Of a DNA stretch of 64,000 bases, positions 1,073 to 21,002 are shown in pieces. Source of the stretch: Mangrovicoccus sp. (GTDB taxonomy: Bacteria; Pseudomonadota; Alphaproteobacteria; Rhodobacterales; Rhodobacteraceae). A program made the translations under genes and the position numbers. Below the pieces are notes generated by a model that saw only the letters and a program-made list of their open reading frames with translations, was not told the DNA's origin and searched no databases. The stretch covers positions 21,467-85,466 of the forward strand of contig JAOXSB010000073.1 in the NCBI GenBank assembly GCA_025800345.1. The letters are read 5' to 3'. Position 1 is the first letter of the stretch. The number at the start of each line of letters is the position of its first letter.

Positions 1073-1663
1073 CTAAGTTGTTTGGAGGAAATCGACCGTC
1101 TCGTGTATGGCCTCCAGAAAGCTGAAAAGAACAAACGCAACTTGCCAAGGCTTGCGCCGCATTTTTCCTTCGAGTTCGATTTCTCCGATCATCGACCAAA
1201 TGCCCTCATCTCGAGGCTGTGATCCATTGTCATAGACGGGGCGAAAGTCATCGGTGTGGATAATTTTGTTGCAGCATTCGCGAAGTGTTTCAGGGATCTC
1301 CTCGCCTTCATAGATGGTGAGAAACCCGCCGTGTGCTGCAAGCTGTTCGGCTTTGAAGGTCTGGAACCCTCGTTCCTCTCGCAACTGGTCATCAAGCGCA
1401 CGGTACGACGCCGCTACGGTCAGTAGAATCCTCGATAGTCGCTCCTCGGCTGCGTCTTGGTGCCGTTTGACCAGCAATGGGTGCGACCACGCGGGATCTT
1501 CGCCAAATTCCTGAAGATCATCATTCCAAAAGGCCTCAACACCTCTCGTTGCGAGCGCGATCTCGAATGCTTCAAGGCACATGGATTCGATTGCGTCGCA
1601 ATCAAAGGCGAGTGGTTTTTTGAATTCGTGCCAGTACGGATTTTCGTTCGGTGATCGAGACAC
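1073..1663 (-). CDS. Hypothetical protein, third gene of the AbiE operon
   Basis: 196-aa ORF. Its GTG start shares 1 nt with the AbiEii stop, and GAGGG lies about 8 nt upstream. No recognisable domain. Confidence 0.6.
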   Translation of the reverse strand: MSRSPNENPYWHEFKKPLAFDCDAIESMCLEAFEIALATRGVEAFWNDDLQEFGEDPAWSHPLLVKRHQDAAEERLSRILLTVAASYRALDDQLREERGFQTFKAEQLAAHGGFLTIYEGEEIPETLRECCNKIIHTDDFRPVYDNGSQPRDEGIWSMIGEIELEGKMRRKPWQVAFVLFSFLEAIHETVDFLQTT

Positions 1664-2688
1664 TATTTCACCCTCTTATTGGCGCGGATTTGCAGGTCGG
1701 CCATTCTTTCCATGAGTTCATCAAAGCCGATTGCATCGGATCGCAGGAGCCCGGCATCGATCATCTTTTGGTAATCCTGATGAAGCGCCTCCAAAGGCTC
1801 GCCCTCGGGTGCCAAACAAAGTGAACCGGATACTGCTGTCGCATACTCGATCACCTTTCCTGTTTTGTCAGTCTCCCGAAAGAATTGTTGCTTGTGCTCG
1901 GCTACAGCGTTGGCGAGCCCTCGATCATCAAAGGCCTTTTGGGCAATCCCGATCTTATCCAGGCAGTCAAGATCGTACCAATGTCGCGCATAACGATCGC
2001 CACCGCGAAAGGCTCCGCGCAGGCAATACGCGTGAATGGCAGTGGCTTTTTCCCAGAATGTGCGCTCCGCAACCATGACCCTTGGGTGGGCTGTGGGCAA
2101 TATGAGCCCTTCGACCCCCTCGACTAGATCGCAGGTTACTCTGTGCCGCCCGGCAGGCTCGCCCGTTGAGCGTGCACCGAACTCCAGGAGCACCGCGGGT
2201 CGCACATATCCGTTGTTGCCGCGCACAGCTTTGTAATCCAGGTAGAGCCGGCCATTGTCCTGCCGCAGTGATGCTGGGAGCTTCTGGCTTTCAAATTGAG
2301 TGATGAACAAAGGCACTACGTCGGTCTCGATCCAAACTGACAAGCGCTCTTGCACAGCCTCTGACCACTTCCTTGCCTGGGACCGGTTTGGTGGATACGG
2401 GGTCTCGGGATTTGAGATGAGATCGGGAATAATCTGCCGAATGTCATAGGTCACATCGACGTCTTCAGAAAATCGGTCGATCGCCTTGTAGACTTTTGAT
2501 AGGGACGTTCCGCCCTTGAATACGAGATGATCGCTCCATTCGCTTTCGAAAAGAGCATTGAGCGCCCAAACGACCCAGATGTCTTTTTCGAGGAGATCAG
2601 CGGGCCGCCCCAAATTTGAGGCAGCCGCTTCGAGCGCATCGATTTTGTCTCTTTCGGACAGATCGAAATAGCTTGGGGTTCGTGTCAT
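1663..2688 (-). CDS. abiEii: AbiEii/AbiGii-family nucleotidyltransferase toxin (DUF1814, type IV TA)
   Basis: FKGGTSLSKVY and FSEDVDVTYD motifs are typical of AbiEii. I take ATG at 2688 (ATGA overlap with the upstream stop) rather than the track start at 2727. Confidence 0.85.
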   Translation of the reverse strand: MTRTPSYFDLSERDKIDALEAAASNLGRPADLLEKDIWVVWALNALFESEWSDHLVFKGGTSLSKVYKAIDRFSEDVDVTYDIRQIIPDLISNPETPYPPNRSQARKWSEAVQERLSVWIETDVVPLFITQFESQKLPASLRQDNGRLYLDYKAVRGNNGYVRPAVLLEFGARSTGEPAGRHRVTCDLVEGVEGLILPTAHPRVMVAERTFWEKATAIHAYCLRGAFRGGDRYARHWYDLDCLDKIGIAQKAFDDRGLANAVAEHKQQFFRETDKTGKVIEYATAVSGSLCLAPEGEPLEALHQDYQKMIDAGLLRSDAIGFDELMERMADLQIRANKRVK

Positions 2689-3281
2689 CACGCCACGGCT
2701 AGGGTGCTTAGTTCTTTCGCCATCCAAGTCGGCGCGCTGGCGCGTAAGGCGAGTAGCTCACGCCGCTCGTCTTCATTCAGTTGGGACTTGATACGCCCCA
2801 AAGCCTTGCCTGCTTCTGATTTGCCAAAGTAAGCCAATGCCCTGAAGGCATGCCCGGCCCGGCTGTTTGGCGCACGTAGCTGCCAACTCGGAACATGCTT
2901 CAATTCCACGCTTTGGGCCCCAAGCTTCAGATTGCGACTGGGACCGGACGTCCAGTAGATCTGGCGGGAGGGGTTTTGCGTCGACAAACCAAGTATATTG
3001 GCCGCAGAGGCACCGCTTAGCGACACACGTTCTCCTGTGGTTTTTGCGATGCTCTCAACAACAGCCTCGACAGATGGCGCACGCGCCCCGAAGCGGGTCT
3101 TTACAGGCAGGGCGAACAGACCACGTTTTACACGCATGAGCTCGCCACGCTTCACCAATCGAGACAAAGCCTGGTCAATTGCAGCGCGCTCTCCAAGGTG
3201 GAGAAGCTCTTTTGCAGAAAGGGCCGAGCCTTCCGGCAACGCTTCTGCATAGGCCTTGATCGCTTCGGATGTGGTTCTCAT
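2688..3281 (-). CDS. abiEi: AbiEi-like antitoxin / transcriptional autoregulator (DUF6088-like)
   Basis: 197 aa with an N-terminal winged-helix-like segment (IDQALSRLVKRGELMRVKRGLFALP). It is translationally coupled upstream of AbiEii. Confidence 0.75.
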   Translation of the reverse strand: MRTTSEAIKAYAEALPEGSALSAKELLHLGERAAIDQALSRLVKRGELMRVKRGLFALPVKTRFGARAPSVEAVVESIAKTTGERVSLSGASAANILGLSTQNPSRQIYWTSGPSRNLKLGAQSVELKHVPSWQLRAPNSRAGHAFRALAYFGKSEAGKALGRIKSQLNEDERRELLALRASAPTWMAKELSTLAVA

Positions 3282-3293
3282 GTCGGCTCCTTT

Positions 3294-3321
3294 GTGTCAG
3301 ATATATAGCTTGTTTTCTGAC
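3294..3321. promoter_or_regulatory. Inverted repeat TGTCAGA-N14-TCTGACA in the divergent abiEi / sigma-like promoter region (candidate operator)
   Basis: Perfect 7-bp arms read directly from the sequence, 13 nt upstream of the abiEi start. AbiEi antitoxins are known to autoregulate through inverted repeats. Confidence 0.35.
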
Positions 3322-3403
3322 AGTTTGCAAGGTAAAAGCAAAGCAGGGAACGCGCTGGAGAAACCGAACTAACGAATTGATTTACGAAAATTATGAACTT
3401 GAT

Positions 3404-4210
3404 ATGTGCATTGAACCCCTGAGAAAACGAACAGTAAGCGGAGAGCTCTATACCCGACGGGATGAGATTAATGCGTTTATCCGCTTGAGCCTTGATTGGC
3501 CCTTTGATGAGCTGCTGGACAAAGCTGCGATGCGAGATCGGCGGCACGCCGACTACGTGCCTTCCGAAGTGCTGCTCTATCACCTGAGACAAACCAAGAC
3601 CGACAATGCGGATGGCCGGTTTGTTGCACTTTACAACATTTTGTTGGATCGGATTGAAGCTGCCTGTCCCCGGCCCAATAGCCGACGCGGCGATAAGGAC
3701 GTCGAGGATTTTCGCGTCGCCGAGATCCGCGATAAAATAATAGAACGTGTGACAGAGCTCATGTTTGAGGACCGGCGGGGCTACGTAGAACAGCTTGACG
3801 CATATGAGGTGTTTTTTGACCGGGCCGTTCGCTCCGTTCGCATAGACAAATTTCGGCAGATAAGTGGTCGGGAAAATGCCACCGAATCCGTTGTGCACCA
3901 CGATGGCAGCGAGGATATCCGCGAGGAAGTCGAAGAGGCGCTTGAGCGATACAAAAAGTCAGGCCTGACAAAAGAAGAAGATTTTGATTACCGGTTTCGC
4001 ATACGTCGCGCGATTGACGCCTTACCCGAGGAAGAACGAAAGGTGATCGATTTGATGCTCGCAGAGATTCCCATTGAGACGAACAAAGACGGTGAGCCTT
4101 CAATGACCCAGCTGCTCGGCTGCGTCGAAAAAACCGTACGAAACAGGCGTGATCGTGCGTTTGAAAAGATCAGACGCGCACTCAAACTGGAGGACAATGA
4201 TGAACAATAG
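3404..4210 (+). CDS. Sigma-70 region-4-like DNA-binding protein (ECF-sigma-like C-terminus)
   Basis: The C-terminal IDALPEEERKVIDLMLAEIP...MTQLLGCVEKTVRNRRDRAFEKIRRAL looks like sigma-70 region 4. ATG 3404 is chosen to leave a divergent promoter region; the track start 3269 would overlap abiEi. Confidence 0.6.
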   Translation: MCIEPLRKRTVSGELYTRRDEINAFIRLSLDWPFDELLDKAAMRDRRHADYVPSEVLLYHLRQTKTDNADGRFVALYNILLDRIEAACPRPNSRRGDKDVEDFRVAEIRDKIIERVTELMFEDRRGYVEQLDAYEVFFDRAVRSVRIDKFRQISGRENATESVVHHDGSEDIREEVEEALERYKKSGLTKEEDFDYRFRIRRAIDALPEEERKVIDLMLAEIPIETNKDGEPSMTQLLGCVEKTVRNRRDRAFEKIRRALKLEDNDEQ

Positions 4211-4748
4211 AGAAGATGTCCTCAGCGACTTTACGATTGAGCCTGAAATGTCGCCTGCCGTGCTGAAAACCTATTTGAGCAAATACCCTGAATTTGCAGA
4301 CGAACTTCTGGATTTGTTCCACGAGCTGACAATGAGCGACATGGAAGCGGTCGAGGCAAGTCTCCCGCTTGAGACCAAGGCTATGAAGACCAGCGTCTTG
4401 CGGGTTAGGAAAGTCGAGCAAGCACTGTACGGCGCCGACGTTCGTGAACTCTCAAAATCGTTGGGTTTGCCGCGGAGTTTCCTCATGGGGTTACAAGCAA
4501 GTGTAGTCCATATCGGCTCGATGCCGATTTCGCTCCTTAATAAGCTAGCGAAACTGCTGGATGTGAGATTACAGGATGTCATCAGCGGCATGCAAATTGG
4601 CGATCAACAGGCCGTTGCGATGAAATCTGATGTGAAACCTGAAGCACAACCGGCCATCGAATTCCAAGTTTATGTAGACCAGGCTGGATTGACCGAGGAG
4701 GAGCAACGCGCATTACAAGAGTTGCTTGTAGATGATGGATCGGATTGA
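4197..4748 (+). CDS. Hypothetical protein with XRE-like HTH segment
   Basis: ATGATG at 4197 is preceded by GGAGG and overlaps the upstream stop by 14 nt. [20 protein letters not shown] resembles an XRE-type HTH. The C-terminal tail is acidic. Confidence 0.6.
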
Positions 4749-7700
4749 AGCCGTTCGTCGATGTGCCGCACATCTTCATACTGAGCGTAGGAGCAAGGGA
4801 GGCGATCCAACCCAACCCTATTCATTTGCTCTCCAAGAGGCAGAAGCTCGGGATTACGAAGTCCGCAAGCTCGCTCCTGACCATCCCCAGCTCAAAGGGG
4901 GACGGGCGCTCTTGCAGCCGAGAACCAAAGTCATCCTGCATGAGGATACGGGCAATGAGTTTTTAAATGCGTTTCTTGTTGCCCATGAGCTAGGTCATGA
5001 TGAATTTGGCGGAGGTATTGATGTCCCGCCAACCGTGAACATCGATCCGGCACGATCGTCTGATCCAGCCTCCGTTGGGGCGGATCGCGTTGTCGATTAC
5101 AGCAACCGTGCCCGCCAGGAAGTCCAAATGGATATGTTTGCGCGGGAGTTCCTCTTTCCGCGCAGTTTGGCCTGGTCCTGGCATGTCGAAGACAACCTTG
5201 GCGCAAAGGAGATTTCAGAGCGTCTTGGCGCCCCCTACGACATGGTTGCGGTGCAGCTATTTGATGCGCTTTTGTTACCGGTGTTGGAGGAAACGCCGGA
5301 TATCGCAAGCGCACCCAAACCATTGAACCGTGAGCAACAACTTGCTGCGGATCATGACGGAAAAGCGCTTCTGCTGAAGGCGGGCCCCGGGACGGGCAAA
5401 ACCCAGACGCTCGTTGGCCGCCTGTCTGTGCTACGAGACCGCGCTGTGCAGCCAGAGTCCATTCTGCTTCTGACATTTTCCAACAAGGCCGCAGGAGAGA
5501 TGACCGATCGGGCGCTGCGGGTTTGGCCGGAAGCGGCTGGTGCGGCCTGGATTGGGACCTTTCACTCATTTGGGCTTGATATCTTGCGCAGGTTTCATGA
5601 CTGCGTGGGTCTTCCCGCGGATCCCCGTATGATTGATACGACCGAAGCCATCGCCCTATTGGAGGATGAATTCCCACGGCTGCGTTTGAAGCATTTCAAC
5701 GAACTTTGGGATCCGACAGATACCCTGCGCTCTCTCCTTTCCGCCATTTCACGGGCCAAGGATGAGGTGGTCGACAACATCCATTACCGTAAGCTCGCCG
5801 AGCAAATGATGGAGGCCGCGGTCACAGAGGCGGATATCGAGGCAGCAGAAACGTGTCTGGAGATCTCAGCTGTCTATGATCTCTATGAAGAACTCAAGGC
5901 GGAACGCGGCGTGGTCGATTTTGGTGATCTGGTCGCTCGGCCGACAATGCTCGTCGAAGGTGATGCGGATGTTCGCGAGAAACTTCAACAACTCTACGAC
6001 CATGTTCTGGTGGACGAGTATCAGGACGTAAACCGGGCCAGTGTGCGATTGTTGAAGGCGCTGAAGCCTGACGGCACCAACCTCTGGGTGGTGGGAGATG
6101 CCAAACAATCGATTTACCGGTTTCGAGGTGCATCCTCGTATAACATTGATCGATTTGAGACCGAGGATTTCTCCGGAGGCAAAAGTCTCCCACTCAATAT
6201 CAATTACAGGTCATCACAAGAAATTTGTGACATATTCAAGGGCTTCGCTCAAACGCGCATGGTAGCTGCCGGTGTGGGCTTTGAGGCCACGGCGTTTAAG
6301 GGTGCCAGTGGGATTAGTCCCGTGTTTGTGGGCGTCGATGCCAAGGATCGCGAAATCGATGAAATCGCCTTCCGAATTAAAGACGCCTGCAACGAGGCCA
6401 CGTCTTTCCGTGATCAGGCCGTCATATGTAAGGGCAATGCGAGGCTGGCAGAAATCGCCGCTGGTTTAGAGGCGCGGGGTATTCCGGTCTTGTTTCTTGG
6501 GCCCCTCTTCGACAGACCAGAAATAAAGCAAGCGCTTTCCGTCCTTTCCCTTGTGGTTGACCCACGCGCCATGGGACTTGCCTGCGTCGCGTCTCTGCGC
6601 CCATTTCAAATGGCGATTGACGATGTTTCAGCTTGTGTTGATGCGGTTCGTGCCGCAAAGAACACGCTGCCCTTGGACTGGAGGCAGACGCTTTCGGGCC
6701 TAGACGACATCAGCGAGGCGGGTGAGAAGTCCCTCTCAAAGTTGATTGAGGTGTTTGGGGAGTTTGAACCAACTTCATCAGCCTGGCGCGTGGTTACAAC
6801 ACTCTATCTCGACAAGACGCGCTTGGCAGCCGAATTTGCGAAGGAAGCAAGATCAGGCAACGCAAATCCTGCGATTGCGATGTGGCAGTTTCAGAATTTT
6901 CTGAGATCAACATTGCCGAAAAAATCCGGGTACCCCATTCGTGATCTTCTCGATCACATCCGGCGCCTTGTCATTGTGTCAGATGAACGTGACTTACGCG
7001 ACCTGCCTGAAGCGGCACAAAGCCTCGACGCTGTCCGGATCATGACCATTCACGGCAGCAAGGGACTTGAGTTCAAAGTCCTTCATTTGCCGGCATTAAC
7101 CAGCCGATCCATTCCGCTGTCAGCCAAGCAAAACCGCGGACTTGCGCCTCCTGACGGCATGATCGAGGGTGCGCCCTTTAAGGGCTGTGACGCGCTCACG
7201 TCTGGGCATGACGAGGAGCAGGAATGTTTGTTTTTCGTCGCTTTATCCAGAGCAGAGGAGCGGTTGATACTTTATGCCTACAGCAAGAGATCGAAGTTCG
7301 TGGATGACATATCTGGTCATGTTCTAAGCGAAGCTTCACAATCGGCATCGACTGAATTCGCGATATCAGCGAACGGAATAAAGTTGGAGGTTGATGGCAT
7401 CGCTCGCATATCGCCTTCCCAGCTTGCGGCCTATGAAAAGTGCCCGCGGCGGTTTTTCTTTGCACATGTGTTGCAAGTCGGCGGTCGTCGCGCAGAGTCG
7501 CCCCTTATGCGTATGCACAACGCAGTCCAGGGCGTTGTCGATGAGCTGACGTCTCGTTTGAACGATGAACCAAGCGATGCAGAACTCGCAGCCATTATGG
7601 ATAAGGCGTGGGTGGAAAATGGTCCGGTGGATCATGGATACGCTGCCGAGTACCGTCAAATCTCAGACGAGCTGCTGAGTTTTTTCCGATTGGTCCGAAC

Positions 7701-8130
7701 AGGTGAAAAACGGCGCGCACCAACCCCAATTTCCTTGAAGTTCGGTGAGGCAGAGATTGTCGTGTCTGCACATGAGGAAGTCGATGCTGGGTCTGGCCGG
7801 GTGCTGCGGCGTATCAAAACAGGACGGAAGACCACGAACGCTGTCGAGTCCTTAGATGCGGCTGCCTTTCAGCTCGCCGCTGAAGGCCACGGCCAGGCAG
7901 AGTTCGTGTTTCTGACCGGCGCGACGCAGGACCGATTGACCATGAGCAGCACGAAACTGGGGAACCGGAAAACAAAGATCGCTCAAGCTGCAATTGCGAT
8001 CCTCGAAGGGCATTTCCCTCCAAAACGCACCGATCGCTGCGCCCGCTGCGCATATTTCTTCATCTGCAATGAACCGCCCTCAGGCACGCTCCGAAAAAAA
8101 ATCGGATCAGGCTTACCGGATTCCTCCTGA
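4732..8130 (+). CDS. ImmA/IrrE (M78) metallopeptidase + UvrD/PcrA-type SF1 helicase + Cas4/AddB-type PD-(D/E)XK nuclease fusion
   Basis: HEXXH ([10 protein letters not shown]) near the N-terminus. Helicase motifs [43 protein letters not shown] and ALSRA. C-terminal CPRRFF...[10 protein letters not shown] (C...CX2CX5C) is typical of iron-sulfur RecB-family nucleases. Confidence 0.85.
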
Positions 8131-8199
8131 CGCCGCGATTGTCCTTGTGAAGGCGCAGACATGAGGTTTACGTCCGCCAACTTCTTAAGGACGAACACA

Positions 8200-9051
8200 A
8201 TGAAATCGCAAGGAAATGATCCTCGCTTCCCGGTCTTCATCGCTGATGAGGGCCTCAACTACAAAAAACACGTTTTCGATGACCCAAAGGTTCTCGGTCG
8301 CCAGTTGATCGAAGCTGCCGACGGGCATCCGGTTGATGAACATGTGGCAATCGCCATTTTGCCAAACGGGGACTTCGAAGACATTCGCCTCGACGAAAGC
8401 TATGATCTGCGCGGGCGCGGTGCCGAGAAAGTGCTGGTTGCGCGGACGGACCGTGTCTTCAAGTTTAAGATCGACGACAAGGATCTTGAATGGCCGCGCG
8501 CGTGCATCAGCGGATTTGTACTGCGTAAGCTTGCGGACCTGCCGGAAAACTACAATCTCTGGCAGGAAATTCCAGGCCAGCAGGACCGCAAGATTGCTGA
8601 CTGCGATCTGATCAATCTCAATGCCAAGGGTGTGGAGCGGTTCATCTCGCTCATCGATCAGACGACGGAGGGGGACACCCTTCCGTCGTTCGATCAGACT
8701 TTTCTGGTGGACCATGGCTATCAGTTCGACGTCGTTCAGGAAGGCCGTGAAACCGGCATCATCCTGAAGTCGCTCGACCTGCCGGAAGGCAAATTCAATG
8801 TCGAAGCCGCGGACATCCTTGTACTCCTGCCAAACGGGTATCCCGACTGCGCGCCTGATATGTTCTATGCCTCTCCGCATTTGACGTTGGCGAGCGGTCA
8901 GGTCCCGAAAGCCTGCACGGTCCAGCACACCTATGCAGGTCGTGTTTGGCAGCGCTGGTCGCGCCACAACAACGCCTGGCGGCCCGGGATTGATGGTTTG
9001 CGCACGATGGTGGCGCGGATCAAAACTGCGCTCGCCGAGGCGCGGCCATGA
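8200..9051 (+). CDS. Tandem ubiquitin-like (Multi_ubiq) domains fused to a prokaryotic E2-like domain (family E type)
   Basis: Two beta-grasp-like repeats (VFIADEGLNYKKHVF... and FKFKIDDKDLEWPRACISGFVLRKLA...). These are followed by LPNGYPDCAPDMFY...GRVWQRWSRHNNAWRPGIDGL, which I recognise as Prok-E2_E-like. ATG 8200 has an AAGGA RBS. Confidence 0.8.
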   Translation: MKSQGNDPRFPVFIADEGLNYKKHVFDDPKVLGRQLIEAADGHPVDEHVAIAILPNGDFEDIRLDESYDLRGRGAEKVLVARTDRVFKFKIDDKDLEWPRACISGFVLRKLADLPENYNLWQEIPGQQDRKIADCDLINLNAKGVERFISLIDQTTEGDTLPSFDQTFLVDHGYQFDVVQEGRETGIILKSLDLPEGKFNVEAADILVLLPNGYPDCAPDMFYASPHLTLASGQVPKACTVQHTYAGRVWQRWSRHNNAWRPGIDGLRTMVARIKTALAEARP

Positions 9052-10442
9052 AGGGCCCGCTGGATATTGTTCTGGCTGGTCCGCACGAAGCCGGTATCCG
9101 GTCTCTGCTCGCGCAGGGTGCCGGTGCCGAGCGTTCCGCCTACATGCTTTTTGGGACAGCGGCGATTGAGAAAGACCCCTGGACGGACTCTGCTCGCACA
9201 CGACTCATTTCGCATGCATTCATCGACCTCGATGATGACGACGTGGTCTCAGCCTCCGAGCGCCACGTGACGTGGCAAACTGATAGTTTCATGCGATTGC
9301 TTGGTCGCGCCAAGTCCGGTGGCCTGGTTCCCGCCATCGTTCATACCCATCCAAAGGGCCGGGCCCGTTTTTCCAAACAAGATGACCGGAACGAGGCGGA
9401 ACTTGCGCGGACCGCCCTGTTCAAGGGTGCACCCGGACTAATTAGCGTTTTGATTGCGAGCGACGGCGAGATTGCCGTGAGGATTTGGCGCTCGGCTGAA
9501 AAGCCAACGGCCATCAGGCGTATTCTTCACACAGGACCGCGTCTGGCCCTCACCGCAGAGAACGGTAGCGAGCTGGGCTTTCTGGACCGTCAAACCCGAC
9601 TTTTCGGCGATCAGGCCAATGCAATGATCACGCAGTTTCGCTGCGGCATTTCCGGAGGGGGCGCTACGGGAAGCGCAGTGTTGCCTTTGCTGATGCGTCT
9701 TGGCGTGCGCGAGGCGGTCCTCTGCGAAAAGGACCATGCTGAAGATACAAATCTCAACAGGCTCCATGGCGCACGACAGGAGGATGTCGACGCTCATCGA
9801 GCCAAGGCTGACATTCATGCTCGGACAGTTACGGAGGCCGATCTTGGCATGTCATTGGTAACCATCGATGCCTGGGCCGGTGAGCCATGCACATGGGACG
9901 CATTGAGGTCTTGTGATGTGATTTTCTGTTGCACGGATGATCACGCCGGTCGACTCTTTCTGAACCGCTTCGCCCGTTTCTATGGCATTGCGGTCATCGA
10001 TGTCGGTCTCGCAATGCAGCGTCGCGATGCTCAGTCGTTCGATCTGTTTGCCCGGGTTACCACCCTTGTGCCCGGACACCCCTGTCTGCTCTGCGGCGGG
10101 TTCATCAACCCGCAACGCGCGCGCGAGGAAGCCCTGCAGCGGACTGATCCGGAGGCTTATGAAAAACTGAAAGAGGAAGCCTATCTGCTTGGTGAGGGTG
10201 ACCCCTCCCCTGCCGTTGTGACCTTCACGACAGAGGCGGGTGCCATGGCGGTCAATGAATGGCTGACCGGTATCACCGGATTTGCCGGAGCAAACGGAAT
10301 GGCACCGACGCGGATGCGCCGGTTTCACGCGCGCGATGAGCGTTTTCCTGAGATTTCGCCGCGCCCGGGTTGCCCGTGTTGTGATGCAACTGAAACGCTG
10401 GGCCGGGGAGACATGACACCCTTTCTGGACATGGTGACGTGA
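9048..10442 (+). CDS. JAB/JAMM deubiquitinase-like peptidase fused to E1-like (ThiF/MoeB) adenylyltransferase
   Basis: Intact JAMM motif HTHPKGRARFSKQD (HxHx7Sx2D). Rossmann GGGATGS, NLNR, CTDD. Paired CLLC and CPCC zinc site as in ThiF/MoeB. ATGA overlap with the upstream gene. Confidence 0.85.
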   Translation: MKGPLDIVLAGPHEAGIRSLLAQGAGAERSAYMLFGTAAIEKDPWTDSARTRLISHAFIDLDDDDVVSASERHVTWQTDSFMRLLGRAKSGGLVPAIVHTHPKGRARFSKQDDRNEAELARTALFKGAPGLISVLIASDGEIAVRIWRSAEKPTAIRRILHTGPRLALTAENGSELGFLDRQTRLFGDQANAMITQFRCGISGGGATGSAVLPLLMRLGVREAVLCEKDHAEDTNLNRLHGARQEDVDAHRAKADIHARTVTEADLGMSLVTIDAWAGEPCTWDALRSCDVIFCCTDDHAGRLFLNRFARFYGIAVIDVGLAMQRRDAQSFDLFARVTTLVPGHPCLLCGGFINPQRAREEALQRTDPEAYEKLKEEAYLLGEGDPSPAVVTFTTEAGAMAVNEWLTGITGFAGANGMAPTRMRRFHARDERFPEISPRPGCPCCDATETLGRGDMTPFLDMVT

Positions 10443-10443
10443 G

Positions 10444-10815
10444 ATGAAAAAGCTATTGGCAAACCTGCTTCGGCAGCTTGGAGTGCTGAGGTATGACTAT
10501 CTGGTGAGCAGGCAGGACGCCTTTCCGCAAACGCCTGAATCAGAACCGGACGAGTTAATCCTGGTCGAGAGCGGCGCGATCCAAAAATGGGCCTGTCTCT
10601 CCTGCCCTGGCGGCTGCGGCGAGAGGATCGCTTTGTCTCTCAACCCAGATCGCCGACCTCGCTGGAGCATTAGGACAGATTTCTGGCAGAGACCCACACT
10701 CCACCCGTCGGTGCATCAGCAAAATGACTGTGGATGCCACTTCTGGGTCAAAAAGGGTCAGGTTCATTGGTGCAAGGGTGGGCGGCCGCAATCACCGAAC
10801 AAGAGAATGGAATGA
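10444..10815 (+). CDS. DUF6527-like small Cys-rich protein
   Basis: 123 aa with CLSCPGGCGE...TLHPSV...CGCHFWVKKGQVHW, matching my memory of the DUF6527 signature (xPS...C.SH.W...G.v.W). It starts 1 nt after the E1 stop. Confidence 0.7.
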   Translation: MKKLLANLLRQLGVLRYDYLVSRQDAFPQTPESEPDELILVESGAIQKWACLSCPGGCGERIALSLNPDRRPRWSIRTDFWQRPTLHPSVHQQNDCGCHFWVKKGQVHWCKGGRPQSPNKRME

Positions 10816-10888
10816 CACAAATGGTTTGCGAGCGAATAAAGCGATCGGGATATCGCGGCACACGGCCCGCACAGGTGGGGGCGTATCG

Positions 10889-11590
10889 ATGCGTTTCGCT
10901 TTAGACGAGGGCAAACGAGTTGAAGCCACCCCAGGCGCCAAAGGCAAATGCCCAGGATGTGGTGCAGAACTCATCGCACGATGCGGAACCAAGAAAGTTT
11001 GGCACTGGGCCCATAAAGGTCAGCGGCATTGCGACCACTGGTGGGAAAACGAAACGCAGTGGCATCGGGACTGGAAGAACCACTTCCCGTCTGATTGGCA
11101 GGAGATCCCAGCTCGAGATGAAGCGGGTGAACTTCATATCGCAGACATCAAGACGCCAAAGGGTTTGGTTGTCGAGTTTCAGCACTCTTACATCAAGCCA
11201 ACAGAGGCCTGTAAGAGAACAGAGTTTCACAACCCGATGTTTTGGGTTGTCGATGGAACTAGGCGAAAGACGGATCCCAAGCAGTTTCAAACAGCACTGA
11301 AAGACGGCTTAGAACATCCAACGAAGGATGGGCTTGTTCAACAGATTTGGGTCTATGATTCACGGCTGATCAAAGAATGGGTTCACGTCGGAGTAATCGT
11401 TGCATTCGATTTTGGCAAAGACACAGTTTGGATCCTCCGTCGAATTAAGAACGATTGGGTATATGGATTTGAGTACCCGAAACTCAAACTGGTCGAGCAT
11501 ATCTCTGAAAGCAGGCCCATCCCCGATGTGTTATTTGGCCAGCCTGAACGTCGGACAGCAAGATACCGTCGCCGCCGGGCCAGATTTTGA
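10889..11590 (+). CDS. CoiA-like (competence protein CoiA family) putative nuclease
   Basis: N-terminal CPGCGAELIARCGTKKVWHWAH zinc-ribbon plus HCDHWWENETQWHRDWK and ADIKT...VVEFQHS core resemble the CoiA family. ATG 10889 is chosen over track start 10724, which overlaps the previous gene. Confidence 0.7.
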   Translation: MRFALDEGKRVEATPGAKGKCPGCGAELIARCGTKKVWHWAHKGQRHCDHWWENETQWHRDWKNHFPSDWQEIPARDEAGELHIADIKTPKGLVVEFQHSYIKPTEACKRTEFHNPMFWVVDGTRRKTDPKQFQTALKDGLEHPTKDGLVQQIWVYDSRLIKEWVHVGVIVAFDFGKDTVWILRRIKNDWVYGFEYPKLKLVEHISESRPIPDVLFGQPERRTARYRRRRARF

Positions 11591-11820: not shown

Positions 11821-11899
11821 CATATCATCTGCCAAAATGACCTATTGAAACGTTTAGGTCATGTCACGTGAAACGCCACACGCACATTACCGGCGCAGT

Positions 11900-14170
11900 T
11901 TAGCCGCTACATTTGGAATAGCCGCAACTGCCGCAGGTCATGCAGCCTTCAAGCATCCGCATCTCATAGGCCCCGCAACTGTCACAGGCTTTGCCCCGTG
12001 GGCGGGCCGTATCAATCATGTCATGGGGATCAGATTTCAGCCCTTGGCCTTCGCCATCGATAAAGCCGATGGCCACCATATGGCGCTCCACCACGCCGCC
12101 GATCGCCGCCAGGATCGAGGGCACATATTTGCCTTCCATCCAGGCCCCGCCGCGCGGGTCGAACACGGCTTTGAGCTCTTCCACCACGAAAGACACATCG
12201 CCGCCGCGCCGGAACACCGCCGAAATCATCCGGGTCAGCGCCACGGTCCAGGCGTAATGCTCCATATTCTTGGAGTTGATGAAAACCTCAAAGGGCCGGC
12301 GGCGCCCGTTCACCTCAATATCGTTGAGAGTGATATAGATCGCGTGCTCGCTTTCGGGCCAACGCAGCTTATAGGTATGCCCTTCGAGAGCACGGGGCCG
12401 ATCCAGCGGCTCGGTCAGATGCACCACATCGCCGCTCACCACCGGGGCGGGGGCGGCGGTTTCCTTGGGCTTTTCTTCGGCAACGCTCAGCACCGAGCCG
12501 GTCACATCATTGGGCCGGTAGGTGGTGCAGCCTTTGCAGCCCTGATCCCAAGCGGCCAGATAAACATCTTTGAAATCCTCAAAGCTGATATCTTCGGGGC
12601 AGTTGATAGTTTTGGAGATGCTGGAATCGATCCAGCGCTGCGCGGCGGCCTGCATGCGCACATGATCCATAGGTGCCAGGGTCTGCGCATTGACGAAATG
12701 ATCGGGCAGCGGCGCATCGCCCTTGAGCTCGCGCCACATCTGCACCGCGTAATCGGTCACTTCTTCTTCGGTGCGGGTGCCATCTTTTTGCAGCACTTTG
12801 CGGGTGTAGCTATAGGCAAAGACCGGCTCGATCCCGCTGGACACATTGCCCGCGTAAAGGCTGATGGTGCCAGTGGGCGCGATCGAGGTCAGCAGCGCGT
12901 TGCGAATGCCATGCTCGCTCACCGCCGCGCGCACATCCTCGCCCATGCCTTGCATAGTGCCGCTGGCCAAATAAGCGTCGCGGTCAAACAGGGGGAAGGG
13001 GCCTTTTTCCGCCGCCAGATCGACCGAGGCCAGATAAGCGGCGCGGGCAAGCGCCCCCAACCATTGATCGGTCAGACGCGCCGCTTCCTCGGATCCATAA
13101 CGCTCCCCTACCATCAGCAAAGCATCGGCCAGCCCGGTCACCCCAAGGCCGATCCGGCGCTTGGCCGCGGCTTCTTGCGCCTGCGCTTCCAAGGGGAATT
13201 GGCTGGCATCCACCACATTATCCATCATGCGCACGGCGAGGCGCACCAGATCATCCAACGCCGCCTCATCAAGCCCTGCATCGGGGCCAAACGGGTCTTT
13301 GACCAGCCGCGCCAGATTGATCGAGCCCAGCAAACAGGCCCCATAGGGCGGCAATGGCTGCTCGCCGCAAGGATTGGTGGCGGCGATGCTTTCGCAATAG
13401 GCCAGGTTATTGGCGGTGTTGATCCGGTCGATGAAAATCACCCCGGGCTCGGCGAAATCATAAGTGGATTGCATGATCGCATCCCACAGCGCCCGGGCCT
13501 GCACCGTGCGATAGACCGTCCCGTCAAACACCAGATCCCAAGCCCGGTCCGCTTTCACCGCTTCCATGAACGGATCGGTGATCAGCACCGAAAGATTGAA
13601 CATGCGCAGCCGCGCCGGATCGGATTTGGCCGAGATAAACGCCTCGATATCAGGGTGGTCACAGCGCATGGTGGCCATCATCGCGCCCCGGCGCGAGCCC
13701 GCGGACATGATGGTCCGGCACATCGCATCCCAAACATCCATAAAGCTCAGCGGGCCAGACGCATCCGCCGCCACCCCATGTACTGGCGCGCCTTTGGGCC
13801 GGATGGTGGAGAAATCATAGCCGATCCCGCCCCCTTGCTGCATGGTCAGGGCGGCTTCTTTGAGCATATCGAAAATCCCCGACATCGTGTCGGGAATCGT
13901 GCCCATAACAAAACAGTTAAACAGCGTTACCGCCCGGCCAGTGCCCGCACCGGCGGTGATCCGCCCCGCTGGCAGGAATTTGAAATCCTCAAGCGCCTCA
14001 TAAAATTTCGGCTCCCAAGCGGCGGGATCTTTTTCCTGCTCGGCCAAGGCCTTGGCAATGCGCTGCCAACTGTCTTCGATACTATGATCTACCGGGGCAC
14101 CGTCGGCGTCCTTAAGGCGGTATTTCATATCCCAAATCTGCTCGGCAATGGGCGCAGAGAATCGGCTCAT
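11900..14170 (-). CDS. nrdJ: Vitamin B12-dependent (class II) ribonucleotide reductase
   Basis: Strong family resemblance throughout (TNPCGEQPL, SISKTIN). C-terminal Cys-rich tail CDSCG...CMTCGSCGYSKC. ATG 14170 (MSRFSAPIAEQIW) is preferred to the upstream track start. Confidence 0.9.
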   Translation of the reverse strand: MSRFSAPIAEQIWDMKYRLKDADGAPVDHSIEDSWQRIAKALAEQEKDPAAWEPKFYEALEDFKFLPAGRITAGAGTGRAVTLFNCFVMGTIPDTMSGIFDMLKEAALTMQQGGGIGYDFSTIRPKGAPVHGVAADASGPLSFMDVWDAMCRTIMSAGSRRGAMMATMRCDHPDIEAFISAKSDPARLRMFNLSVLITDPFMEAVKADRAWDLVFDGTVYRTVQARALWDAIMQSTYDFAEPGVIFIDRINTANNLAYCESIAATNPCGEQPLPPYGACLLGSINLARLVKDPFGPDAGLDEAALDDLVRLAVRMMDNVVDASQFPLEAQAQEAAAKRRIGLGVTGLADALLMVGERYGSEEAARLTDQWLGALARAAYLASVDLAAEKGPFPLFDRDAYLASGTMQGMGEDVRAAVSEHGIRNALLTSIAPTGTISLYAGNVSSGIEPVFAYSYTRKVLQKDGTRTEEEVTDYAVQMWRELKGDAPLPDHFVNAQTLAPMDHVRMQAAAQRWIDSSISKTINCPEDISFEDFKDVYLAAWDQGCKGCTTYRPNDVTGSVLSVAEEKPKETAAPAPVVSGDVVHLTEPLDRPRALEGHTYKLRWPESEHAIYITLNDIEVNGRRRPFEVFINSKNMEHYAWTVALTRMISAVFRRGGDVSFVVEELKAVFDPRGGAWMEGKYVPSILAAIGGVVERHMVAIGFIDGEGQGLKSDPHDMIDTARPRGKACDSCGAYEMRMLEGCMTCGSCGYSKCSG

Positions 14171-14279
14171 GGTGGGCGGTCCTGTCAGAATCGTCGGATG
14201 CGGTGAAAGAGGCCCCACCCTATTGCAACCCGCTATAGCTAGTCTACCATAAAGCGCAGACAACAAGGACTAGAGAAAA

Positions 14280-20630: not shown

Positions 20631-21002
20631 GCGCGCGGATGGCTGGATGGCCGCGGCCTTTGGGTCGAGGAAAGTCCGGACTCCAAGAAGCATCGGTGCC
20701 GGGTAACGCCCGGCCGGGGAAACCCGAGGGAAAGCGCCACAGAAAACAGACCGCCCCGCTTGCGGGGTAAGGGTGAAACGGTGGGGTAAGAGCCCACCGC
20801 GGGACGGGTAACCGGACCGGCATGGCAAGCCCCACCGGGAGCAATGCCGAATAGGGATCCTGCGCGGGCTTGCCCGCAGGCCGCTTCAGCCCAGGGATCC
20901 GGGTTGGCAGCTAGACCCCGTCAGCAATGGCGGGGCCAGAGGAATGGTCATCCATGGGGCCCTGCCCCAGGACAGAATCCGGCTTACAGGCCATCCGCGC
21001 GC
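20631..21002 (+). ncRNA. rnpB: RNase P RNA, bacterial type A
   Basis: Conserved GAGGAAAGTCCGG, ACAGAAAACA, GGGTAAGGGTGAAA, GGTAAGAGCCCACC and ACAGAATCCGGCTTA blocks. P1 pairing joins 20631-20643 with 20989-21002. Confidence 0.85.

Follow-up and report, generated by a model that had tools for sequence, protein, structure and literature searches.

An open reading frame at positions 4732–8130 of a 64,000 nucleotide (nt) stretch of Mangrovicoccus sp. DNA (GenBank assembly GCA_025800345.1, contig JAOXSB010000073.1, positions 21,467–85,466 of the forward strand; the whole stretch is termed the window) encodes a predicted 1132 amino acid (aa) protein that combines an M78 peptidase, a UvrD helicase and an iron-sulfur (Fe-S) pseudo-nuclease. 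The fusion gene is the last member of a trio, i.e. sigma factor, partner and fusion, which is located directly upstream of a Bub operon for the conjugation of ubiquitin-like proteins (Ubl). The fusion is most readily explained as the sensor-protease of this trio, which would serve as a control module for the adjacent Bub operon by way of DNA-activated cleavage of the partner; a probability of about 0.55 is assigned to this reading. The module appears to be a widespread, unannotated DNA-activated M78 protease switch that is motorized, coupled to a sigma factor and dedicated to Ubl operons. As far as the accessible literature shows, it has not been recognized.

The features of the cassette in the window are as follows.

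3404–4210, + strand: sigma70-family factor gene, first of the trio; 268 aa from the likely ATG at 3404 (the mechanical open reading frame begins at 3269)
3988–4015, + strand: P1, promoter-like motif TTACCGGTTTCGCATACGTCGCGCGATT (TTACCGN-N16-CGATT), inside the sigma gene about 185 nt before the partner gene
4200–4748, + strand: orphan partner gene, 182 aa from the likely ATG at 4200 (open reading frame from the GTG at 4149); its stop codon overlaps the start of the fusion gene
4732–8130, + strand: fusion gene, an uninterrupted open reading frame of 1132 aa
4732–5301, + strand: IrrE/CapP-like zinc metallopeptidase with a helix-turn-helix (HTH)-like linker (aa 1–190), from Pfam, the AlphaFold2 model and Foldseek
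4984–4998, + strand: HExxH of the peptidase (residues 85–89)
5119–5121, + strand: third zinc ligand, E130, from sequence conservation
5323–7281, + strand: superfamily 1A (SF1A) helicase core of the UvrD/PcrA type (aa 198–850)
7405–8070, + strand: PD-(D/E)XK domain of the AddB/AdnA/Cas4 fold (aa 892–1113) with four cysteines and a predicted degenerate active site
7441–7443, + strand: C904
7807–7818, + strand: RRIK (residues 1026–1029)
8038–8067, + strand: CxxCx5C
8113–8141, + strand: P2, promoter-like motif; TTACCGG (8113–8119) is in the last codons of the fusion gene and CGATTG (8136–8141) follows after N16, past the stop codon at 8128–8130
8139–8194, + strand: leader hairpin of two helices; in the outer helix UUGUCCUUG pairs with the Shine-Dalgarno region AAGGA (8187–8191) of bubAB
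8200–9051, + strand: bubAB, two Multi_ubiq domains and Prok-E2_E
9048–10442, + strand: bubCD, JAB peptidase and E1-like ThiF domain
10444–10815, + strand: bubE, DUF6527 serine protease

Four Pfam families match the fusion sequence, where only scores above the curated gathering cut-offs were counted: Peptidase_M78 (PF06114) at residues 41–176 (29.0 bits, cut-off 22), UvrD-helicase at 198–477 (201 bits, cut-off 23), UvrD_C at 488–850 (88 bits, cut-off 25.6) and PDDEXK_1 at 892–1113 (57 bits, cut-off 22). A preliminary description of this DNA, made from the letters of the sequence, had proposed a triple fusion of ImmA/IrrE metallopeptidase, UvrD helicase and Cas4/AddB-type nuclease in one frame, and quoted a HELGH motif, a full set of SF1 helicase motifs and a four-cysteine signature. 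The fusion is borne out by the single frame and the four Pfam matches, and all of the quoted motifs are found. Motif conservation was scored in 110 close homologs and in 73 homologs that span phyla; HELGH (residues 85–89), GPGTGKT (218–224), DEYQD (428–432), the stretches at 454–467 and 772–781 and the four cysteines are invariant or nearly so in both sets. The true start of the fusion is possibly the second methionine, at position 4735, as homologs open with MDRIE.

More than 100 database clusters of 1125–1147 aa, from many Alpha- and Gammaproteobacteria, match the fusion with a query coverage of 99%–100% and an identity of 50%–95%. Their current labels are “UvrD-helicase domain-containing protein” or “ATP-dependent helicase” and nothing more. 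The possibility that the gene is an assembly or annotation artefact, i.e. two or three genes joined or split by a sequencing frameshift, was raised in the preliminary description as a ground for refutation. Its probability is practically nil, as the same protein is present as a single full-length open reading frame of 1115–1180 aa in the more than 100 independent clusters, in 73 genome loci and on at least 78 plasmids. In one variant, P0115, a 1764 aa protein from a JGI metagenome, the helicase is separated from the nuclease-like domain by an inserted stretch of about 630 aa, and the M78 domain has a higher score, 43 bits.

The preliminary description also considered the fusion of an ImmA-type protease to a helicase-nuclease as unusual. 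This arrangement is not rare: a scan of one genome per species finds relatives of the N-terminal domain in 289 species genomes, which span the Proteobacteria, Planctomycetota, Verrucomicrobiota, Myxococcota, Nitrospirota and Acidobacteriota. Phage records contain nothing that matches the N-terminal domain, and complete E. coli genomes nothing that matches the Kluyvera copy of the fusion at the DNA level.

The loci were compared for the best 80 of the 289 genomes, and 71 of these have enough downstream sequence to be informative. The trio order is invariant in the 80 loci, with a sigma-like protein (about 267 aa), the partner (about 190 aa) and the fusion (about 1133 aa) encoded on the same strand, and the stop and start codons of successive genes overlap or abut. 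A Ubl-conjugation operon is directly downstream of the trio in all 71 informative loci. It is a Type I Bub operon in 30 loci, a Type II Bub operon (BubA, DUF6791-ThiF BubBD, BubE) in 37, a split Ubl/JAB/E1 variant in three and a ubiquitin-family plus ThiF system in one. A different cargo is found behind the same P2 motif and leader in L051 (13470–19635), i.e. a ubiquitin-family/DUF2604 protein, a 146 aa protein and a ThiF E1-like protein, followed by a calcineurin-like phosphoesterase and an SMC/SbcC-like ATPase.

In the window the gene order is AbiEii and AbiEi (− strand), sigma, partner, fusion, bubAB, bubCD, bubE, a CoiA-like gene and a class II ribonucleotide reductase gene (− strand). A Type I Bub operon consists of BubAB, BubCD and BubE in that order (Ye et al., PMC11601596). 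The window BubAB matches Prok-E2_E at 8e-43 and Multi_ubiq at 1.8e-26, BubCD matches ThiF at 3e-26 and Prok-JAB at 1.5e-10 (all Pfam), and BubE matches PF20137 at 1.3e-24. The likely start of bubAB is the ATG at 8200 (283 aa), from alignment across loci, with the open reading frame extending from 8161. The E2 domain of BubAB contains the ‘SPH’ Ser-x-His motif. BubE displays a zinc finger of C51, C54, C58 and C96 together with S89 and H99, in the spacing of the published S92/C99/H102. The same Bub gene order is found in homologous loci. Gene order and the catalytic residues of the E2 domain and BubE both match, and by this comparison the Ubl genes of the window are classed as a Type I Bub operon.

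The N-terminal 190 residues are predicted to form a zinc metallopeptidase. H85, E86, H89 and E130 do not vary among the 73 phylum-spanning homologs, and E130 is within the sequence RxExQMDxFAREFLxPR, which corresponds to the M78 signature “E...FA..LL.P”. Residues 1–200 give no match to PDB entries either by single sequence or by family profile. A model of the domain built by AlphaFold2 on 23 family sequences has a predicted local distance difference test score (pLDDT) of 86 and a predicted template modeling score (pTM) of 0.83. The top PDB matches of this model in Foldseek are IrrE (3dti, 3dte), PprI (8sln, 8slm) and PrpR of Mycobacterium tuberculosis (6cyy), at a probability of 1.00 and a TMq of 0.53–0.57 over about 180 columns; 8sln is a complex of PprI with single-stranded DNA (ssDNA), and PrpR is a DUF955-type regulator. 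The M78 fold that had been proposed for the N-terminus is thus supported by both the Pfam score and the model. The fold match extends through helices 144–181 of the fusion, therefore the module would comprise a peptidase and an HTH-like linker, as in IrrE and CapP. No GAF domain is matched by Pfam after this linker, and the sequence beyond position 190 or so is UvrD helicase.

The M78 domain displays a long insertion at residues 93–124 (window positions ~5008–5103), between the HExxH helix and the E130 helix. The insertion contains the invariant residues R108, D122 and Y123, and positions 113–120 form a low-confidence loop. It is situated between the zinc-site residues H89 and E130, and the auto-inhibitory cysteine switch of CapP, C113, is likewise situated between H100 and E129. 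By analogy, the insertion might gate the active site.

The helicase core displays motifs I, Ia, II, III, IV, V and VI, which are invariant across the homolog sets, as are the sequences NYRS, TIHxSKGLEF and VALSRA; the motif set is thus complete, as first described. There is no orthologue-level match to PcrA, UvrD, Rep, AddA or RecB, the best NCBIfam equivalog, PcrA, scoring 240 bits where 911 are required. PADLOC gives generic GajB and DRT-helicase matches for the UvrD core alone and none for the partner proteins, and the fusion is not one of its listed defense proteins.

The C-terminal domain gives nothing useful against the PDB by single sequence, but with its family profile mycobacterial AdnA is matched in the nuclease domain (E-value = 1e-4; 6ppj and related entries). 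The four cysteines C904, C1103, C1106 and C1112 are invariant in the close, the phylum-spanning and the representative sets. In the profile alignment the catalytic sequence VVVDLKTGK of AdnA is aligned with VLRRIKTG of the fusion, and two canonical outgroup proteins, which have the sequence IDRID...IIDYKTGK, align likewise with DYKTG placed on RRIKTG. These two were the sole canonical outgroups in the top 150 of an exhaustive profile search, where nearly all matches belong to the family itself. In motif III, R1027 is therefore in place of the acid and K1029 is the lysine, as the preliminary description had suspected when it read RRIKTG as an altered (D/E)YKTG. The preceding HEEVD, which it also pointed out, is not the remnant of motif II; the equivalent of motif II is A1013-H1014, where the family consensus is P-D.

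Column counts were made on 149 representatives clustered at 50%, the two canonical outgroups included. Position 1027 is arginine in 103 of them and D or E in three, i.e. the two outgroups and one divergent member, and it is never D or E in the 110 close and 73 genome members. At position 1029 there is arginine in 95 and lysine in 25 of the representatives, the window protein having lysine. Positions 1013–1014 are P-D in most (D in 115 of 149) and A-H in the window. The glutamine of QxxxY is poorly conserved in the family. Neither the profile alignment nor the column counts disclose an intact D...(D/E)xK triad elsewhere in the domain. The PDDEXK_1 score, the AdnA match and the four cysteines agree with the Fe-S nuclease fold that was first described, and the nuclease active site is predicted from these alignments to be degenerate, with the loss of motif III being family-wide. 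Such an arginine-lined Fe-S fold would suit phosphate or DNA-end binding better than catalysis. In AddB the Fe-S cluster is needed for the binding of DNA ends.

The first gene of the trio is found in the same position in essentially all loci. Its start codon, ATG 3404, is inferred from homolog lengths and from alignment of the sequence MCIEPLRKR. The family profile matches regions 3–4 of FliA (6pmi, E-value = 7e-5) and shows a weak match in region 2, to SigE residues 16–56 (E-value = 0.017), and 18 of 22 family members match Sigma70_r4_2, i.e. region 4. The protein is 38% identical to its Halomonas counterpart. A GAATTGA-like motif is present 25–35 nt before the sigma start codon (window ~3375–3385; also in L010, L017, L020, L025 and L030), with start calls that are noisy. 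An extracytoplasmic function (ECF)-type promoter, GGAAC-N17-CTAAC, was considered upstream of the sigma gene and was dropped, as it is not conserved across loci.

The partner is present in all loci and is 35% identical to its Halomonas counterpart. Its start at ATG 4200 is favored by homolog lengths and alignments; database homologs are 182–193 aa long and are all annotated as ‘hypothetical’. The partner has no Pfam domain, and a profile search finds unannotated relatives alone. Signals of a Cro/C1-type HTH are present in the central region but are faint and under every threshold. A structural model built with the database homologs is all-helical (pLDDT 75), and its residues 137–148 form a linker, KSDxKP, that is disordered yet conserved. 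The model has no significant fold match. The partner is a candidate substrate of the peptidase, either an anti-sigma factor or an HTH repressor.

The sequence TTACCGN-N16-CGATT has 143 matches in the 1.57 Mb of locus sequences as compared with about three in shuffled sequences. Nearly all copies are at two fixed places per locus (L001, L004–L084), and their consensus is TTACCGG-N16-CGATTG. P1 is fixed in about 70 loci, ~4.16–4.2 kb upstream and in the 3′ part of the sigma gene, over the codons of YRxR..AI. Codon usage at the motif departs from that of the same genes overall: Ala is GCG in 32 of 32 (35% overall), Ile is ATT in 32 of 32 (35%), Arg is CGG in 29 of 32 (24%), and the preceding codon ends in T in 30 of 32 (19%). 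P1 is held at the DNA level through the choice of synonymous codons. P2 is within 40 nt of the fusion stop codon in 66 loci, with a spacer of 16 nt every time. The motif lacks symmetry and its spacer is rigid, as in −35/−10 elements, and for this reason P1 and P2 are read as promoters. Among sigma factors, the best structural relative of the sigma family is FliA, and the FliA −10 consensus, GCCGATAA, has a CGAT core in common with the motif. A generic scan for sigma70 promoters and terminators performed at chance level.

Directly after the −10 element of P2 is the leader hairpin, whose inner hairpin is GC-rich. The window leader folds with a minimum free energy of −20.5 kcal/mol (z = −3.0). 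A covariance model, built with an explicit structure from a uniform subset of leaders, has 28 copies, every one at this position. Pairing in the outer helix is 93.6%, and four of its six pairs show compensatory changes; the covariation score is 0.329 as compared with 0.204 ± 0.016 in shuffles (none of 500 reaches it) and at most 0.153 in slid controls. These figures come from an alignment that the covariance model had fitted to the structure, by which the pair counts are somewhat inflated. RNAalifold on a MAFFT alignment of all leaders gives no pairs, as the variable loops are misaligned. The Type I leaders, in which the inner hairpin is longer, are not recovered by the covariance model; for these the structure is backed only by inspection and by the fold of the window leader itself. 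There is no such family in Rfam.

These elements can be joined into a proposed mechanism. The helicase motor and the dead arginine-lined Fe-S domain would load on aberrant DNA, i.e. free ends or ssDNA from phage replication or DNA damage. Engagement of DNA, possibly with ATP-driven translocation, would turn on the N-terminal peptidase, in parallel with the activation of CapP and PprI by ssDNA. The peptidase would then cut the co-translated partner, likely in the conserved disordered KSDxKP linker, and this cleavage would free the private sigma factor or lift repression. The sigma factor would fire both copies of the motif, with P1 restocking partner and fusion as a negative feedback and P2 driving bubAB-bubCD-bubE. 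Transcripts from P2 probably begin within or beyond the 5′ arm of the hairpin and would be translatable, as this arm starts 1–3 nt after the −10 element and the anti-Shine-Dalgarno arm would be missing from P2 mRNAs; transcripts that read through from upstream would include the hairpin in full and would not be translated. The proposal of the preliminary description that sensing of DNA ends or ssDNA is coupled to proteolytic signaling is strongly supported by the context, because of the coupled partner and sigma factor, the dedicated promoter motifs and the Bub operon directly downstream.

Several points weigh against this sensor-protease model. Peptidase activity, DNA activation and cleavage of the partner are all inferred. 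The partner, with faint HTH signals, no fold match and membership in an orphan family, may be of either class named above. The assignment of the motif as promoter of the sigma factor is drawn from architecture only, i.e. an asymmetric motif, fixed spacing and position, and the pair counts of the leader are inflated as noted above. The exclusive association with Ubl operons hints that the fusion may do more than regulate, and as the comparison covers the best 80 of 289 loci, other cargos may exist among the rest.

The last-mentioned association leads to an explanation in which the fusion is itself a part of Bub immunity. It would, for example, track invading DNA and displace proteins or mark DNA-bound targets for Ubl conjugation, and the substrate of the peptidase would be a target or one of the Bub components. 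This is unlikely. In its favor, the linkage to Ubl operons holds in 71 of 71 loci and across four operon architectures, the strict conservation of all helicase motifs suggests real translocation over mere binding, and the targets and biological role of Bub are still unknown in the literature. However, many Bub operons lack the fusion and use CapW, CapH+CapP or CapK+CapS, so it is not a core Bub component, and the conservation of sigma factor, partner and promoter motifs along with it speaks for transcriptional control. An explanation of the CapH/CapP type, which is rather unlikely, places the partner as an HTH repressor and the motif copies as its operators, solely or in addition; the fusion would cut the repressor on sensing DNA, and the sigma factor would be an accessory activator. 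The faint Cro/C1-type signals are in keeping with this, and the layout of the partner (helical core, disordered conserved linker, C-terminal helices) is like that of CapH and DdrO, where CapH/CapP and IrrE/DdrO are characterized precedents. The HTH signals are however below every threshold, the motif has no dyad symmetry, and a rigid 16 nt gap between unlike half-sites is typical of −35/−10 elements. In addition, a sigma factor that is never missing must have a promoter to act on, and no further conserved candidate came to light.

Also unlikely is a composite in which a translocating sensor of DNA ends or ssDNA is mechanically coupled to a protease that destroys an anti-sigma factor, and also forms an E3-like platform that brings Bub conjugation to proteins on foreign DNA. 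Such an E3-like recruiting role, if true, would explain why the module is restricted to Ubl operons. That the fusion is an ordinary DNA repair helicase-nuclease of the AddAB/AdnAB/RecB kind with an N-terminal extension is suggested by the helicase and by an Fe-S nuclease fold similar to AdnA and AddB. This is very improbable, as the catalytic acids are lost across the family, no partner helicase-nuclease subunit is present and every equivalog cut-off is missed by a wide margin. Moreover the distribution is patchy across phyla and plasmid-borne, like that of mobile elements, and the fusion is always within the trio-Bub cassette.

The sensor-protease model has parallels in several known systems. 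CapP and IrrE/PprI are M78 peptidases that are activated by DNA and cut an adjacent regulator (including Lau et al. 2022, bioRxiv 10.1101/2022.04.27.489752). As in CapH+CapP, the IrrE-like HExxH peptidase of the trio leads into an HTH-like linker, a small partner is encoded next to it, and an immune or stress operon comes directly downstream. A sigma70-family factor accompanies some capH+capP pairs, and Bub operons are a known cargo (bioRxiv 10.64898/2026.05.16.725639; bioRxiv 10.1101/2022.04.27.489752). Unlike CapH+CapP, however, the C-terminal GAF domain of CapP is replaced here by about 930 aa of UvrD motor and Fe-S pseudo-nuclease, the partner is an orphan with no recognizable CapH, and the order is sigma, partner, peptidase, cargo. 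The sigma factor is always present, the module has a promoter motif and a leader hairpin of its own, and published tables do not score these trio loci as CapH+CapP. IrrE/PprI-DdrO of Deinococcus and ImmA-ImmR of ICEBs1 and phages, in which a damage-activated M78 peptidase cuts a transcription regulator, include the best structural matches of the N-terminal domain. Those peptidases stand alone, with a GAF domain or none, and lack the ATPase motor, Fe-S domain and dedicated sigma factor of the trio.

With AddAB, AdnAB and RecBCD the fusion shares a RecB-fold domain placed after an SF1A UvrD-type motor. The four-cysteine signature is that of AddB, AdnA/B and Cas4, and the best PDB sequence match of the nuclease-like domain is AdnA. 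The fusion differs from these enzymes as a single polypeptide without a partner subunit, with a predicted dead site (R1027 for the acid and AH for PD) and with a peptidase carried along. RecC bears a dead nuclease-like domain that is used for strand handling. Anti-sigma factors are known to undergo regulated proteolysis, e.g. RseA by DegS/RseP. The trio is similar to the RseA type in having a sigma gene followed by a translationally coupled small partner, a protease in the same operon and a dedicated promoter motif. In contrast, the trio is cytoplasmic and presumably triggered by DNA and not by envelope stress, its protease is an M78-helicase fusion, and the anti-sigma role of the partner is putative.

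Bub operons are also found under other DNA damage-responsive modules, i.e. CapW/BrxR, CapK+CapS (PMC11662680, PMC13373217) and CapH+CapP. CapW/BrxR and CapK+CapS are similar to the trio in their location upstream of Bub operons, and presumably in their input, aberrant or single-stranded DNA. However, CapW, a WYL repressor, and CapK+CapS, a GHKL kinase with a STAS repressor, are unrelated proteins that accompany many defense systems, whereas the trio is seen with Ubl operons alone. Dataset EV1 of the CapK/CapS paper has regulator columns for CapK, CapS, CapP, CapH and CapW. None of these has an entry for Phaeobacter inhibens (6E.1), Paraburkholderia tropica, Rhizobium mesoamericanum and R. sophorae (6E.2), and the same four species, matched by species name, carry the trio directly upstream of a Bub operon (loci L066, L060 and L076 among them). 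No description of the fusion is found in the accessible literature, which is partial and does not include the 2011 Burroughs-Iyer-Aravind paper on Prok-E2_E. The accessible literature on Bub regulators makes no mention of a helicase or nuclease, and the fusion is absent from the founding comparative genomics paper.

Several other features are present around the cassette. An AbiEii/AbiEi type IV toxin-antitoxin pair (window 1663–3281, − strand) is divergent from the trio, and the intergenic region between them contains an inverted repeat, TGTCAGA-N14-TCTGACA, at 3295–3322, which is probably the AbiEi operator. This arrangement of AbiE and repeat is also found upstream of the trio in L004–L008, L015, L017 and L021. 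A 288 aa open reading frame at 10724–11590 (+ strand) with a CoiA_N-like zinc ribbon and a nuclease-like region overlaps the end of bubE. It follows BubE in the closest relatives alone (L004–L008, L017, L020); in Halomonas an unrelated gene of 213 aa is present. Two long open reading frames overlap on opposite strands at 11861–14206 (+) and 11900–14266 (−). The minus-strand frame is a class II ribonucleotide reductase (barrel domain, E-value = 6e-127, plus TSCPD), and the plus-strand frame of 781 aa has no matches and is probably a shadow open reading frame. A gene for bacterial RNase P RNA class A at 20635–21002 (+ strand, 296 bits) places the window on a chromosome. The cassette has its closest relatives in Rhodobacterales, e.g. 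Ruegeria atlantica, and plasmid-borne relatives are found in Marinibacterium, Pelagibacterium and Roseovarius.

Bub is a recently defined bacterial pathway of Ubl conjugation, and about half of the catalogued operons are without an assigned regulator. The trio fills a share of these gaps, as it is present in at least four of the species for which no regulator is listed. Its parts are concrete: a motorized sensor-protease with its probable substrate, a private sigma factor, a promoter in two copies and a translational gate. The position of the GAF domain of IrrE and CapP is taken here by an ATP-driven helicase and a seemingly inactivated Fe-S nuclease. If proteolysis is coupled to translocation or end recognition, this would represent a new route from the state of DNA to a transcriptional decision. 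Hundreds of genes labeled “UvrD helicase” or “ATP-dependent helicase” would receive a proper description.

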